Shown piece after piece: positions 51,091 through 59,389 of a DNA stretch of 64,000 bases; positions within the stretch are counted from its first letter, which is position 1, and the number at the start of each line of letters is the position of its first letter. Below the pieces are notes generated by a model that was not told the origin of the DNA, searched no databases, and was given only the letters and a program-made list of their open reading frames with translations. The translations under genes and the position numbers were made by a program. Source of the stretch: an uncultured Nitrospirota bacterium (GTDB taxonomy: Bacteria > CG2-30-53-67); NCBI GenBank assembly GCA_947259355.1, contig CAMYMF010000013.1:874-64873 (forward strand). Direction: 5' to 3'.

Positions 51091-52056
51091 TTAGAATAAT
51101 CTCTCATAACAGGCCGCCACATCATCAAAAACATCGATCAGGTGATAGGCGCCCAGCTTTCCCACACCGGGAATCTGCTCATGATGGTGGGCAGCGTTAT
51201 CCAACTCCTCCAGGATCCATCTCTTGCGCCACGGAGAGCTGAACGGGAAACAACGAAGGCTTGAATGCCTTCCGTCAATATTCTTCAGCCTTATCAGCAT
51301 ACATCGTGAAGGAAACGCAGCACTGGAAGGAAAATCTCGATGCCGGGACGCGTAGTGCCTTTTGACCCAATAGCGATCCACGGACGCATAGGCGCGGCTC
51401 TCCACCTCTTGCTGCCTGAGCCTTTCTCTGTCCACATAACGCTGATAAATATCTCCGCCCGACAACCTTGGGATCCCCTGCTCCCAGGGCGTGTTAGCGC
51501 CGGCCGCCTTGCACGCCCCCTCAACCCGATCCTCAAGCTCCGCCAGCTTTCCACGTAAGCGGTGACTCTGCTGTTCCTTCGCTTTGACCTCTGCATCGGT
51601 CTTTTTGAGATCCTCTTCGGTCCAGGACAAAAGAGCTTGGATTCTTTGATGGGCCTCGTCAACCTCCAATGGAGCTGTCTCAAGCACTTCGATATGAAAG
51701 CTGCCGTCTGGGTTGATCTTCCCAAAGGTACTCGGGATTCGGGAGTTGAGGGTGAGCCTCTGGCAAGAACTCGTACCCCCGCCATCCTTGATGATTCTTG
51801 ATGCATCCTCCAACACGCTCAAGGTAATCTTCGAGTCCCATCTGAGACTATGCAGCTTCTCCACCTGATCCCGCAGGTATTGCACCTCTGCATTCAGCGA
51901 GGACCATTGCTGTTCAGCAGCCATATAATCCTTTCTGGCTTGGGCACAAGCAGCCGCAGACGAAGATCCCCCCTGGCCGTAGGAAAGGGATGGCATTGAA
52001 AGACTCAAAACAGCGAAAATGCAAAATACCCATATTGACGTGTGCAAGATCTTCAT
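51091..52056 (-). CDS. Secreted coiled-coil protein, unknown function (last gene of the RHS operon)
   Basis: Start at MKILHTSIWVFCIFAVLSLSMPSLSYG (AGGAGG RBS). Central coiled coil. No recognisable family. Confidence 0.55.
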   Translation of the reverse strand: MKILHTSIWVFCIFAVLSLSMPSLSYGQGGSSSAAACAQARKDYMAAEQQWSSLNAEVQYLRDQVEKLHSLRWDSKITLSVLEDASRIIKDGGGTSSCQRLTLNSRIPSTFGKINPDGSFHIEVLETAPLEVDEAHQRIQALLSWTEEDLKKTDAEVKAKEQQSHRLRGKLAELEDRVEGACKAAGANTPWEQGIPRLSGGDIYQRYVDRERLRQQEVESRAYASVDRYWVKRHYASRHRDFPSSAAFPSRCMLIRLKNIDGRHSSLRCFPFSSPWRKRWILEELDNAAHHHEQIPGVGKLGAYHLIDVFDDVAACYERLF

Positions 52057-52221
52057 GCCCGCCTCCTGCTTCAATTGCAGAGTCCTCCCGATCAAAAGGA
52101 ACTCATTCATATTTCGGTCATTCATGGTACGATCGCTGTTAGACTCCATTTTATGAGTGGTCATTGACGGACGCCCCAACCCGCTTTACAGCCTTCATTC
52201 TCATCAGGACTGTACCAGCTG

Positions 52222-55200
52222 CTAGTGGACCCAACCCTGCGGCTTGCTCGGGTGTTTCTTCCCTCCTCCCGATCCTTGCGGTGGAATATTCTTTTCCGTC
52301 TCCTGTAGGAGCTCGTCCACCCCTTTTCTTATCTCTCCGTAACCTGGACGGCGACCACCCGGCTTATGCCCGTTGTCATCGTCGTCGTCCCCGTTCCCGC
52401 CGATTGGTTTTGGGGGTCTCTGTCCGTAGCCTTGACCCACACGTTCCGTAATACCAGGATCATACACGACCACTACGACTTCATCTTTGCATTCACGGCC
52501 CAGTTCAGGATCCTTCGCTTCACAGATAATTGTATGGGTACCGATGGAATCCGGTATGGGACATTGGGCCGGCACCTCAGCGTATGAGACCGGTTGATCG
52601 GGTTTTCCATAATCAATGTAGCTGAAGGCAAACACAAAGTTGCAAGAGGGTTTCTTTCCCCCCTCTGTCATGGGGATGGATGTCCTCTTGGGTGACACCC
52701 CCCACCCTGTCATGGTAAGGCCGCCGGAAGGCTTTTGCTTTGGCTTGATCACGACCAGTGCGCTCGCAGGTTTCGCTCCGCGAAAAGACGCTGTAATGGT
52801 CATGACCTTTGGCGTTGCACATTTAATTGGACCTTTCCTGGACCACGTCACCGGACCGGGCGGAGCGCCCGTACTGCCATCAGAATAGACTCCGGTGACT
52901 TGAAAGGCGGGATTAATCGTCTCGCCCGTCTCACACTCAACTCTGGACGGGGAGATTTTCAGTGCAGTCAATGTGGGTTGAGCAGCCTGCTGTGTGGACG
53001 GAGTCTTCGGTGCAGGTTGTTTCTTCGTCTTGGCCAAACAGATTTCTCTTTCTTGCGAGATCCGTACAAGCCATGCATCGAACTTGTGCAGTTTGAAAAC
53101 TGCCGTACCGGCCTTGCCGACCTCCTGGCCAAGCTTGGTCAGATTGGTCTTTGCACAGCCAGAGAGGGTCGCCTCAATCAGCGCATAATCCGCCCCTTCC
53201 TTGATGCCTGCTTTGCCCTTTTTCTCGGACTCGGCAGCCAGCTTCTTAGCCCGGTCCAGGGATTTTATACTCTTCGGCTGAACCCGATCTATCCTAATCT
53301 CCCTGCTTGATAACAAGTGTAGCTCGTCGCTGGGCCAGACACTCTTCAGATTCTTAATCGTCTGATAGAGGCTATTCTTGTCCTTGGTCAACTGCTTGAA
53401 CAACGTTTCGGTGAGCTTCACCGATTTCTTCGTGTTCGAAACGTCTGCTTTGAGCGATGTCAACTGCGCCGCATACCGGTTCTCGATGCTGCCGATCCTT
53501 GTGCGGATATTCTTTATTTTTGTTTTGATATTCTTGACGTCCTTCTGCAGTTGTTCGAATTCGGTCTCTGCCGATTTGTACTTTTTGTCTGAAGAGAGTG
53601 TCAGGGCAGTGGCGGCTTCAACCCACTCTTCGGCCTGCTGTATGGCATCCGCGGGGGGCACGCATGTTTCCAGTATTGAAATGGAGTCCTTGAACCCCTT
53701 TTTGGCCTTCTTCGCCCATTTTTCTGCCTTTTGAGCTTTGTCCACCACGGCCAGTGTACGTGTTCCAATCTCCATGCATTCCTTGTTCAGATCGCCGGTG
53801 ACCTTCTTTTTGATTGTTTCGAATTCCTTCTTAAGATCCTCTGCTTTCTTTGCAGGCCCTTTAGGTCCGGCAGCCTTTTCTGCAGCATCCAGTGCCTCCT
53901 TCAGGGTGTCGCTCACGCGCTTTCCCAGGGTTTCAAGTTCGGTGATCTTTGGATCAAGGTTGGCCAGGACATTTTTCAAACGTTCTGCTGCCTGCGACTG
54001 CTGTAGTGCAATCCTCTCACGCTCGGTTTTGGTTAACTCCGCCTCGCGTATCCGCTCGCCTGCCTTATGGCCGCTGTGGATCGCTGCCCCTGTACCGAGA
54101 ACGCCTATGACAACAGGAGCGGCCGTGCCGCCGGTGGCGGCAATGACTGCCCCTGCTGCACCCCCGATCGCTACCCCGGTGAACAGACTCCAGGCAGCCT
54201 CTTTCTTGCATTCCCAGGGGTCGCGTCCTTCTTCGATGCACGCATGGTAATTGGCGATTGCCAGGATACCGCCGACGGCCGCCCCTCCCTTTGCACCGGT
54301 CTTCGCGCCCTGGACAGCACGTCCGTATGCCGTGCTGCCGCCCCCACCGGTGGCACTCCTGCTTTCGCCAACGTTTATAGGCCGGGTCCCGGATGATCTG
54401 CCTCCGGGACGGTTCGCCTGAGTGCCGCCTGAGCGCTGTGCTTCCAGATCAATTGTATTCATCGTCGATGACCGGGCCCCGCCGGAGGATGATTGCGGCC
54501 GCTGCACAGGCTGCGTGGTGGATGCCGTCGATCGGCCGCCCCTCGCCTGGTTAATCTCGGTCTTGACCTCATCGATCATGGCCTGTGTTCTAACAGCCTC
54601 AGGATCAGATCCCCAGCCATTCTCCCTCAAATACTGCATATGGCTGCGCAAGCTTGCCAGGTCCCACTTCAGCCATTCCACGAGTGGCGAATCGGGGTGA
54701 GGCATCACTTCGGGGTAGACCCAGGGATCACCCAGCGCCTCCGCAAACATGAGCCCGAGAGGGTCGGTAAAACCGGTCGGGGTGTTCTTTACATAAACAT
54801 AAGGGTTTTGATCTATCGGCTGGTCCATCTTAGCAGGAGCCGGATCCTCCGCGATGAAACGACCCAGCTCTGGATGATAATAACGAGCCCGGTTGTAGTA
54901 GAGCCCGGTCTCTTCATCAAACTCACGGGCCGTGAATAAGAACGGGTTGGGTAAGGACCCCTTTCTGCGCGTTATGTTTCCGAATGCATCATAATCATAC
55001 TCTGCTGCGATCTGTCCCTCTTCATCGGTTATCATGCGAATACTGCCAAGTTTGTCGCAATGATAGAAATAGTATTTCACCTGATACATCATTGATAATG
55101 GACGGTCAATCCCCGGACCGTAGGCGTACGTTGCACGTACTCTGAGATCTGTGTCAATCTCCTGGACGAGATTAAACCCGTCATACAGGTAATAGCTCGT

Positions 55201-58321: not shown

Positions 58322-59068
58322 CTACTTGTAATGAAAGTACTGGGTCGGCGTACTGCGGCAAAGACAGCTCACCGCGCTATCTATGCAGACCCGTATCGCT
58401 TTTTCCATGGGCGTGTTTTCATACGCCCCTAAAGCCACCGGCATCACCGTCCGTCCGCCGCCGATTCTTGTCCCAATCTGTGCATCAAAGTCAGAGGCCT
58501 TACCTTCGACCCTGGTTGCAAAGATGATCCTGCCCGTCGCCGTATCGACCGCCCGGAGATCAATGGCCATCGCTGCATTTCTGTACCCGCCTCCCAAGCG
58601 AAACGGCAGTCTTGGCATGGCAAGACCCAGTCCTAACCCTGAGGCATCCCTCTCAAATTCCGAGACGACGCCATACACCAGGATCTCCGCTCCTTCCAGG
58701 ACGCCAATGGGTGCTTCCGTTCCCCTCCTGACACGACCGCTTGCGCCCAAGTCCTGCTCAAGCAGCGTGTCCTGGATGGCCTGCCGATCCAGCACGATGA
58801 AACGGTTGCTGTTGAAAAGAGCGGTCACCAACATCTCCCGCAGGCCGTCGCCTATCTCAAGATCCGCATCGCTGGCCTTAACTTGGAAGTCTCCCACGGC
58901 AACCCTGGCCTTCGGCCCGTCGTAGCGCTCCATCTGCGCCTCAACGACCGACGGCCCCTGAAGGTGTGTGACGTGGGCCACGGGCTGGCCGGGCATGGTT
59001 GCACAGCCCTGCATGAACACAAATAGGGGCACCACAAGTGCTCCGGCAAAACGCTGTATCGTTTTCAT
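58322..59068 (-). CDS. CsgG-family (curli-channel-like) outer-membrane lipoprotein
   Basis: Start at MKTIQRF.. (GGAGG RBS). Lipobox FMQGC. VAVGDFQ....IGDGLREMLVTALFNSNRFIVLDRQAIQDTLLEQDL...GAEILVYGVVSEFE matches the CsgG pattern as I recall it. Confidence 0.6.
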   Translation of the reverse strand: MKTIQRFAGALVVPLFVFMQGCATMPGQPVAHVTHLQGPSVVEAQMERYDGPKARVAVGDFQVKASDADLEIGDGLREMLVTALFNSNRFIVLDRQAIQDTLLEQDLGASGRVRRGTEAPIGVLEGAEILVYGVVSEFERDASGLGLGLAMPRLPFRLGGGYRNAAMAIDLRAVDTATGRIIFATRVEGKASDFDAQIGTRIGGGRTVMPVALGAYENTPMEKAIRVCIDSAVSCLCRSTPTQYFHYK

Positions 59069-59236
59069 GGAAACCTCCTCTCTCTGCTTGGCCTCTTTAG
59101 AAACACCCTTCCCATAGATGACTCTGCACGCTTTGTCTTGGTCCGCCTTATGTGCCGCTTTCTTCTTTCTTTGCAAAGCACTGGCTCTCTTATCCCTTGT
59201 TCTCGAGGTGCCAGCATATTTTCCCTTGCACCCAAC

Positions 59237-59389
59237 AAAAAAGCCGAACTCACCAAAGGCTCATCCTTCGGCAGCTCGGCCGTCTCTACGTCTCAAGTAT
59301 TTTAAAGACCCGCCGCTTTCCGTCCCGTCCTCACGGGCGGTTTAGCTTTTCGGGAAAGTCTCTGTGTACAGATTCTCTTTGCTTCACAC
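59237..59389 (-). promoter_or_regulatory. GEMM-I-like leader, copy B, with intrinsic terminator
   Basis: RNA sense: GUGUGAAGCAAAGAGAAUCUGUACACAGAGACUUUCCCGAAAAGCUAAACCGCCCGUGAGGACGGGACGGAAAGCGGCGGGUCUUU..GACGGCCGAGCUGCCGAAGGAUGAGCCUUUGGUGAGUUCGGCUUUUUU. Confidence 0.65.

Follow-up and report, generated by a model that had tools for sequence, protein, structure and literature searches.

A CsgG-family outer-membrane lipoprotein and an RHS (rearrangement hotspot) protein with no export signal other than a Sec-type signal peptide are encoded in one operon within a 64,000-nt stretch of DNA from an uncultured Nitrospirota bacterium (contig CAMYMF010000013.1 of assembly GCA_947259355.1; this whole stretch is referred to here as the window), and the comparison with related loci gives strong sequence-based evidence that the two are functionally coupled. 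The case for coupling is the gene linkage, since it holds in both directions, in at least four lineages, with two CsgG subfamilies and under differing regulation. The best reading that we can offer is a dedicated CsgG-type outer-membrane device, switched by a cyclic dinucleotide, that would export or anchor the Sec-exported RHS protein; we hold it tentatively, as its probability falls a little short of an even chance. The original prediction, drawn from the letters of the stretch alone, had proposed an export or display route of this kind for RHS or its C-terminal region under cyclic-dinucleotide control: its genetic link stands, while passage of either through the channel is something that we infer. 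All the evidence is comparative and predictive, many of the loci are metagenome-assembled contigs, the source genome was covered over 64 kb, and signal peptides were judged by eye from sequence.

The three genes of the operon lie where they had been predicted, in the order lipoprotein, RHS, open reading frame 3 (ORF3), the last coding for a secreted partner (Table 1). Each has a GGAGG-like ribosome-binding site ahead of its ATG and the intergenic gaps are short; the one between RHS and ORF3 is of 165 nt and holds no ORF. No other export route is visible: the RHS protein has a signal peptide and lacks PAAR, VgrG, TcB and two-partner-secretion (TPS) domains, and no other secretion genes lie in the window. 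The absence from the window of known RHS delivery parts, already noticed in the original prediction, was borne out by Pfam scans of the operon ORFs and about 35 further large ORFs of the window, which detected no PAAR, VgrG, Hcp, TcA/TcB, TPS domain or TpsB. Likewise, the curli components curlin (CsgA/B), CsgE and CsgF were not found among the scanned window ORFs.

Table 1. Features of the operon, its leader and the related leaders, with positions in the window.
Feature	Position	Strand	Basis or remark
Leader copy D, partial	63898-63961	-	21.9 bits; ahead of matrixin/peptidoglycan-binding protease
Leader copy A	61044-61134	-	ahead of metallo-beta-lactamase (MBL)-fold hydrolase
GEMM-I-type cyclic-dinucleotide aptamer (leader copy B)	59266..59355	-	Rfam RF03167 c-di-GMP-I-GGC
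Intrinsic terminator hairpin and T-run	59236..59281	-	sequence GGCCGAGCUGCCGAAGG-AUGAG-CCUUUGGUGAGUUCGGC-UUUUUU
CsgG-family outer-membrane lipoprotein, 248 aa	58322..59068	-	Pfam CsgG, lipobox Cys22, AlphaFold2/Foldseek
Sec-signal RHS (YD-shell) protein, 2007 aa	52222..58245	-	RHS_repeat, DUF6531, Rhs-associated core
RHS plug and YD shell (aa 36-1166)	54748..58140	-	ends in autoprotease motif RFIAEDP...FTDPLGL (DPLGL region aa 1160-1166)
Conserved 841-aa C-terminal extension of RHS	52225..54747	-	layout common to type I RHS proteins
Gly/Ala-rich hydrophobic hairpin with Cys-x9-Cys loop (aa ~1311-1400)	54046..54315	-	Kyte-Doolittle
ORF3, secreted coiled-coil partner, 321 aa	51091..52056	-	signal-peptide-like N-terminus; helical-hairpin model
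Arg-rich motif, ORF3 aa 196-232	51361..51471	-	D-I-Y-x-R-[FY]-V-x-R-E-x2-R-x2-E-V-x-S-R-x3-D-x-R-x-W
Leader copy C, degenerate	50931..51048	-	between ORF3 and FG-GAP repeat gene; sequence aligned with copies A, B and D

By its profile and fold matches the lipoprotein is a member of the CsgG family, as had been proposed, and not a curli CsgG. It matches Pfam CsgG (PF03783) with 134.6 bits (cut-off 20.8; E 3.8e-39) over profile positions 8-200 of 210, and a PDB search with a profile built from 26 homologues returned E. coli CsgG alone (E 7e-12). For the AlphaFold2 monomer model, Foldseek gives CsgG chains in each of the top 20 places (E 3e-11 to 1e-8, TM 0.4-0.55), with FlgT (E 4e-8), the flagellar LPHT ring, HpaA, PelC, LpoB and GNA1162 in lower ranks; the possibility that the protein is LpoB-like was rejected, as LpoB lies far below CsgG by fold and the Pfam match is to CsgG. 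The signal sequence ends in a lipobox (VFMQG-C22-A) whose Cys22 is at least 90% conserved in the 26 homologues, most of which have a canonical L-x-G-C. Two amphipathic hairpins per subunit build the 36-strand barrel of CsgG, and segments corresponding to both are kept here; with 27 and 25 residues they come close to the E. coli lengths, and their alternation of hydrophobic residues is conserved. The NCBIfam equivalog for curli CsgG (NF011731) was not matched (33.4 bits against a cut-off of 505), and in a profile alignment to 3x2r the constriction loop is 8 residues shorter: the deletion takes Y51, and N55/F56 are replaced by D/A (G/A in the consensus of the clade, whose loop reads KA-AGAT-x-EIGDG). 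These three residues have been reported as needed for the function of curli CsgG (PMC4594475). Since the curli-type constriction is missing, the export of unfolded subunits that is established for CsgG, and which the original prediction had carried over, cannot simply be transferred to this lipoprotein; as a speculation, the shortened acidic loop would suit a wider pore that binds basic segments. A sister clade (55-60% identity; L015-L020, L023; P0089-P0110) has C-terminal SH3 fusions (SH3_3, SH3_4, SH3_16) and a distinct conserved neighbourhood of its own, with no ORF3, Arg-rich motif or RHS.

The co-occurrence of CsgG-like and RHS genes proposed for this locus is conserved in other genomes, and it was found starting from either gene. 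Our neighbourhood scan, with one genome per species, covered 80 loci (numbered with L) that hold relatives of the lipoprotein, the closest of which is 69% identical, and eight of them share at least 65% identity with it. A signal-peptide RHS adjoins the lipoprotein gene in five of these eight (L003, L004, L006, L008, L010); a sixth (L005) is truncated and the other two (L007, L009) have no RHS. Look-ups in metagenomes and assemblies added four more loci with the order CsgG, RHS, ORF3 (an unlabelled contig, L088, L094, L097). At L083 and L086/87 the middle position is taken by a non-RHS protein of 750-1000 aa, and in Campylobacterota and Desulfobacula the lipoprotein and ORF3 occur with other secreted proteins of 1200-1550 aa. 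Beside more distant CsgG relatives (among them the SH3 fusions and members from Nitrospinota, Omnitrophota and Planctomycetes) no RHS was found except at L044 and L081. The latter, from Hydrogenophilales (betaproteobacterial), encodes a 1992-aa signal-peptide RHS followed by two PDZ-CsgG fusion proteins. The C-terminus of that RHS has the same hairpin-plus-coiled-coil layout as the RHS of the window. At L081:6979-10606 and L058:2145-10606, CsgG domains that carry PDZ and TPR domains on their N-terminal side stand in tandem, in sets of two or three.

Seen from the other side, the closest homologues of the window RHS shell are proteins of ~1600-2050 aa with 45-50% identity, from NC10 and other bacteria. 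Four of the closest were examined (48-50% identity over the shell) and all four cluster with CsgG-superfamily genes: the RHS gene is followed by two CsgG-family genes in three of them (L098, L100, L101), and in the fourth (L099) an FlgT_N-like gene lies upstream and the contig ends at RHS. The CsgG proteins of these clusters, here called type I, belong to another subfamily, with 34-40% identity to the lipoprotein of the window, and the link of RHS is therefore to the CsgG family and not to one of its lineages. Neither ORF3 nor the Arg-rich motif was found in the type I clusters. The window operon looks like a mosaic in which a type I RHS has been joined to an ORF3-type CsgG pair, because the RHS aligns with type I RHS proteins while the lipoprotein and ORF3 belong to ORF3-type clusters. 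Two of the type I clusters (L098:290-2781, L099:4501-7115) start with a conserved trio, formed by an FlgT_N-like gene (89% identical between the loci) and two genes for small uncharacterised proteins.

The RHS protein was confirmed as such by RHS_repeat matches in 18 stretches (E 1.9e-114, 372.7 bits), DUF6531 at aa 36-98 (38.2 bits) and the Rhs-associated core TIGR03696 at aa 1085-1165 (79.5 bits, with a cut-off of 32.5), and the classical signal peptide that had been predicted for it can be read in its N-terminus, with a basic stretch, 18 hydrophobic residues and LHA|QE. Its shell matches solved Rhs cocoons in the PDB (E 2e-73), the C-terminal part of the shell matches the teneurin-like structures 9pt5 and 9ifo (E ~1e-40), and the DPLGL motif is intact in the protein and in 33 of 66 homologues. 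Beyond the shell, the extension is laid out as a short helical segment, a Ser/Gly-rich low-complexity linker, a hydrophobic hairpin, a coiled coil of ~300 aa, Ig-like domains and a Gly/Asp/Pro-rich tail. The hairpin is the only stretch besides the signal peptide with a Kyte-Doolittle hydropathy above 1.4, and a pattern search recovered this module, the loop being Cys-x(7-10)-Cys, from the C-termini of 26 out of 66 homologues. An Ig-like domain of the kind found in Leptospira LigA (Big_2/LigA) matches weakly at extension aa 579-638 (E 1e-3).

Gapped tblastn comparisons of the full-length proteins align the window RHS with those of NC10 and other bacteria at 38-39% identity over ~1800-1900 residues, so that the alignment runs through the C-terminal extension. 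The relationship was seen by tblastn and by the pattern search; phmmer comparisons of the window C-terminus with the C-termini of homologues gave no match, even with filters off. Pfam detected no toxin domain in the extension, and neither the window nor the type I loci have an ORF of the size of an immunity gene after RHS. Because the extension is conserved across phyla and comes with neither toxin domain nor immunity gene, the window RHS is, as far as comparison can tell, not a polymorphic toxin, and the extension is a conserved structural part of the protein. The original prediction, which spoke of a released C-terminal region, is corrected in that this region is not a released toxin. The cocoons of Tc (toxin complex) and Rhs proteins also indicate that an extension of 88 kDa is too large to fit inside an RHS shell.

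ORF3 has the signal-like N-terminus and the coiled-coil nature that had been predicted: AlphaFold2 models it as a long helical hairpin, followed by a low-confidence helix and a small alpha/beta domain. It matches no Pfam or NCBIfam family, a PDB sequence search returned coiled-coil noise only, and the model had no significant fold match. The family is tiny, with 10 proteins in an indexed search and 34 representatives among 1.84 billion clusters, and every homologue found clusters with the lipoprotein gene wherever the contig is long enough. In terms of gene content, then, what accompanies this CsgG clade throughout is ORF3, and RHS is one of several large, cargo-like proteins. ORF3 was also considered as an immunity protein and rejected, since it stays conserved, independently of the RHS C-terminus, next to large proteins that vary.

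The only invariant residues of ORF3 (R206, R214, E217, V218, R221, R228) fall in an Arg-rich motif of ~35 aa located in the low-confidence helix, and the mini-ORF3 proteins of 140 aa found beside the lipoprotein gene in L007 and L009 consist of little beyond this motif. Desulfoferrobacter suflitae DRH4 is among the carriers of a CsgG-like gene and a mini-ORF3 pair. A hidden Markov model (HMM) of the motif matches the C-terminal parts of large neighbours, including the RHS proteins of L006, L010, L008 and L097, two proteins of 497 and 1050 aa that come after RHS in L003, and the large non-RHS proteins of L012-14, L011/18, L083, L086-90 and L096. After one iteration, sequences outside the training set were recovered with E 2e-8, 1e-8, 3e-7, 1e-5 and 3e-3, with noise starting at E ~0.3, and more than 60 loci with distant CsgG relatives gave no match. 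A motif common to ORF3 and to large proteins that otherwise differ fits what a common recognition element is expected to look like. A loose resemblance to the motif at aa ~1265-1305 of the window RHS was unconvincing by eye and was discarded.

Other C-terminal elements recur among the large neighbours. A domain of ~135 aa that ends in RTYFxxxGxK is common to RHS and non-RHS giants (L086:3992-6982, L088:2-2590, L094:1187-7483, L097:1459-6642), with 73-77% identity between L094 and L086/L088, and ahead of it lie the Arg-rich motif and a linker rich in Thr, Gly and Pro; the window RHS lacks this domain. This distribution suggests that C-terminal cassettes may have been swapped between different N-terminal 'heads'. 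The second large proteins of three loci (L003:16385-19537, L013:14334-17999, L014:12060-13736) end in C-x-x-C-P-x-G-Q-[HF]-I-G-[LI]-x-x-x-x-R-x-C-H; that of L003 carries a PASTA domain, and L012:14876-17761 carries a DUF7107 Cys-rich domain.

The riboswitch predicted upstream of the operon, leader copy B, proved to be a genuine Rfam match within the GEMM-I clan: it scores 59.5 bits against c-di-GMP-I-GGC (RF03167; gathering score 59, E 1.7e-11) over the full model (1-80). The 5' arm of the terminator is the 3' strand of the aptamer itself, and in the minimum-free-energy fold of the whole leader, computed with no ligand, the terminator hairpin replaces the 3' helices of the aptamer. Because the terminator shares this strand and wins in the minimum-energy fold, leader B would in the simplest reading be an ON switch. 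The ligand may be cyclic di-GMP (c-di-GMP) or another cyclic dinucleotide, since copy B clears the threshold of the GGC variant by just 0.5 bit. Both copies A and B match RF03167 best or almost as well as plain c-di-GMP-I, and their ligand may differ from c-di-GMP; copy A, with 56.5 bits, is below the gathering score. Copy C, whose second helix is degenerate, was invisible to Rfam even at E<=1, and it is likely to mark the 3' boundary of the operon. Thus four related GEMM-I-like leaders lie within 16 kb, each before a different gene or operon, and they look like a local family that has been duplicated and is decaying. No riboswitch was detected in the 18 related loci searched, so the leader-based regulatory grouping is local to the locus of this organism. 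In L003:5600-9532 and L008:5741-9631 a histidine kinase and a sigma-54-type response regulator lie directly upstream of the CsgG-like gene, in the place where the window has its riboswitch, and it appears that the same module has been placed under different regulatory inputs in different loci.

How these parts could work together may be pictured as follows. RHS and ORF3 would cross the inner membrane by Sec, and the lipoprotein would be sorted to the outer membrane and assemble into a CsgG-like oligomeric beta-barrel with a short, acidic constriction loop and no Phe/Asn/Tyr clamp. The pore would be a dedicated export or anchoring site for RHS: either the long, partly low-complexity extension would be threaded through it, so that the coiled coil and Ig-like domains are displayed outside, or all of the RHS protein would leave in an unfolded state and fold once exported. 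ORF3 might dock to the pore by its Arg-rich helix and act as an adaptor or retention factor, as CsgE and CsgF do for CsgG. Binding of a cyclic dinucleotide would stabilise the aptamer and block the terminator, allowing read-through into the operon only then and tying its production to the surface or biofilm state. Pore formation, the passage or anchoring of RHS, docking through the motif, the ligand and the ON logic are the parts of this scheme that we infer. A CsgG-type pore is nevertheless the most economical model, because RHS carries a Sec signal and no other, the lipoprotein retains its barrel hairpins and the large neighbours share their motif with ORF3.

Several observations weigh against an export or anchoring device. 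A barrel of the size of CsgG is much too narrow for a folded RHS cocoon, so export would need an unfolded chain, with no evident source of energy. The lipoprotein lacks the curli constriction residues, the fold is also that of ring-forming lipoproteins that are not channels (PelC, FlgT and LpoB, all recovered by Foldseek), and the model is a monomer of moderate quality (predicted local distance difference test score 65.7). In the window only ORF3 carries the Arg-rich motif, which two HMMs failed to find in the RHS protein. As for the linkage, no CsgG gene lies beside two more distant relatives of RHS (36-39% identity), the two close CsgG orthologues with a mini-ORF3 have no large protein nearby, and genes for FlgT_N- and LPP20-like proteins are present in the type I clusters as well (an LPP20/FlgP-like gene in L098). 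Finally, a type II or type VI secretion system (T2SS, T6SS) elsewhere in the genome may serve the RHS protein.

An unlikely, though by no means negligible, alternative is a lipoprotein ring at the periplasmic side of the outer membrane, to which ORF3 and RHS would dock and where they would remain as an envelope structure or sensor, with no translocation at all. In Vibrio and Campylobacter the FlgT_N and LPP20/FlgP-like families make up outer rings of the flagellum, and the presence of such genes in type I RHS clusters would fit this scaffold, as would the missing constriction and the lower-ranking Foldseek matches to FlgT (E 4e-8), the LPHT ring, PelC, LpoB and GNA1162; the linkage of the genes is explained equally well. 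A non-toxin role in the envelope has a precedent in Bdellovibrio Bd0109, an RHS-repeat protein with a regulatory function in the extrusion and retraction of the type IV pilus (PMC3818213), unlike the window RHS in that it is tied to pilus control and Bd0108 and not to CsgG, and is much smaller. However, PelC, LpoB and FlgT-N lack the two long hairpins, which here are conserved, amphipathic and of E. coli-like length, the top fold matches are to CsgG itself, and an Ig-like domain and long linkers of low complexity, as in the RHS extension, are met more typically in proteins exposed at the surface.

It would be rather improbable that the RHS protein is a conventional toxin, antibacterial or anti-eukaryotic, that leaves the cell by a T2SS, vesicles, lysis or a T6SS encoded elsewhere, with the hydrophobic hairpin as a pore-forming warhead and the lipoprotein and ORF3 protecting the producer or being unrelated. 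Most characterised RHS proteins, to judge by the PDB matches, are toxins, the autoprotease motif is intact, the Gly/Ala-rich hairpin could insert into membranes, and the RHS of the distant locus L044 has a short C-terminus that reads as nuclease-like. Yet the C-terminal ~840 aa are conserved across phyla instead of being polymorphic, they would not fit in the shell, and toxin domain and immunity-sized ORF are both missing (the latter in the window and the type I loci); moreover, the lipoprotein (~70% identity) and ORF3 (~45-58%) are conserved while their large neighbours vary, the opposite of what immunity proteins do. Very unlikely, in our view, is that these are envelope proteins of one cyclic-dinucleotide regulon, produced together and mechanistically independent, with no physical interaction between them. 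Such a regulon is what four related leaders before the matrixin, the MBL hydrolase, this operon and the FG-GAP protein might suggest, and the lack of the riboswitch in all related loci searched makes the grouping a local one, but the linkage of CsgG, RHS and ORF3 persists in at least four lineages, in other surroundings and under other regulation (by a histidine kinase together with a sigma-54 regulator, or none at all), and the motif that ORF3 has in common with the large neighbours argues for a common interaction.

Among known systems a close counterpart is the curli (type VIII) system of E. coli, which has in common with this operon the Pfam family and fold of the lipoprotein and small secreted accessory proteins encoded in the same cluster, and would also share both barrel hairpins and substrates delivered by Sec. 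In contrast to curli, the neighbours here are RHS proteins or other giants of 1000-2000 aa and not small amyloid subunits, ORF3 is unrelated to CsgE or CsgF, and the identity of the lipoprotein to E. coli CsgG is ~20%. A CsgG-family lipoprotein that serves adhesive anchoring proteins outside curli is HfaB, which works with HfaA and HfaD in the holdfast anchor of Caulobacter, where there is no RHS. Some relatives of the lipoprotein are named 'CsgG/HfaB family' in the databases, and to our knowledge no HfaA or HfaD homologues occur here. With the Rhs effectors of T6SS and with TcB-TcC cocoons, the window RHS shares the YD shell, the plug, the Rhs-associated core and the DPxGL autoprotease; it differs in its Sec signal, in the lack of PAAR, VgrG, TcB and an immunity gene, and in a conserved, non-enzymatic C-terminus of ~840 aa that is beyond encapsulation. 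Teneurins and bacterial teneurin-like YD proteins also have a YD shell, and the C-terminal region that they keep outside it serves adhesion and not toxicity. Relatives of the window RHS match Pfam TEN_YD-shell; the protein itself has no NHL, EGF or Tox-GHH domains, and an association with the CsgG family is undescribed for teneurins. Lastly, Neisseria MafA is an oligomeric outer-membrane lipoprotein needed to secrete MafB, a Sec-dependent toxin of a polymorphic family, and its authors likened it to CsgG (PMC7738311). By analogy, MafA-MafB could be taken as a precedent for the secretion of a Sec-dependent protein by a dedicated, co-encoded oligomeric outer-membrane lipoprotein; MafB is a small toxin with immunity genes, whereas here an RHS cocoon is the candidate cargo, its extension is conserved and not that of a toxin, and immunity genes are missing.

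Full-text literature searches retrieved nothing that links CsgG to RHS, YD repeats or polymorphic toxins, in agreement with the view of the original prediction that the combination had not been described. How diderm bacteria handle an RHS protein whose only signal is a Sec peptide is an open question, and all the well-studied RHS routes that we know of (T6SS, Tc) begin in the cytoplasm. For the outer-membrane step that is missing from this picture, the conserved pairing of CsgG and RHS genes offers a candidate that is concrete and open to testing. It would add a new class of candidate cargo to CsgG-type (type VIII-like) machinery and a new context for RHS proteins. A wider and more doubtful proposal, which we consider possible and not probable, is that of a new type VIII-like branch in which clamp-less CsgG-family pores export or retain giant Sec-exported proteins, teneurin-like RHS cocoons among them, with the cargo recognised or tethered through an Arg-rich helix on the cargo itself or on ORF3. 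If so, CsgG-type pores would extend beyond amyloid subunits and there would be a fourth route of RHS delivery, beside T6SS, Tc and the Sec/wall anchoring of Gram-positives, and the first to put an RHS shell on the surface of a diderm cell for adhesion rather than killing. A family of RHS proteins of ~2000 aa with a conserved extension of structural or adhesive appearance also bears on the bacterial origin of teneurins, and the Arg-rich motif and the clamp-less CsgG clade offer handles for experiments and, possibly, for nanopore engineering.

The surroundings of the operon are those of an ordinary chromosome. PADLOC gave no match for any of the operon genes, and the Pfam scan of their neighbours in the window identified BamA, a lipid A cluster (lpx/msbA/kdtA), a polyhydroxyalkanoate synthase and hem genes; the sole Omp85 protein of the window has 5 POTRA domains and is therefore BamA. 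A protein of 892 aa with a bacterial TSP3 repeat and a right-handed beta-helix/NosD-like domain is encoded at 1965-4643(+), where its gene overlaps and directly precedes bamA (4627-7092(+)), with the lipid A cluster beyond.

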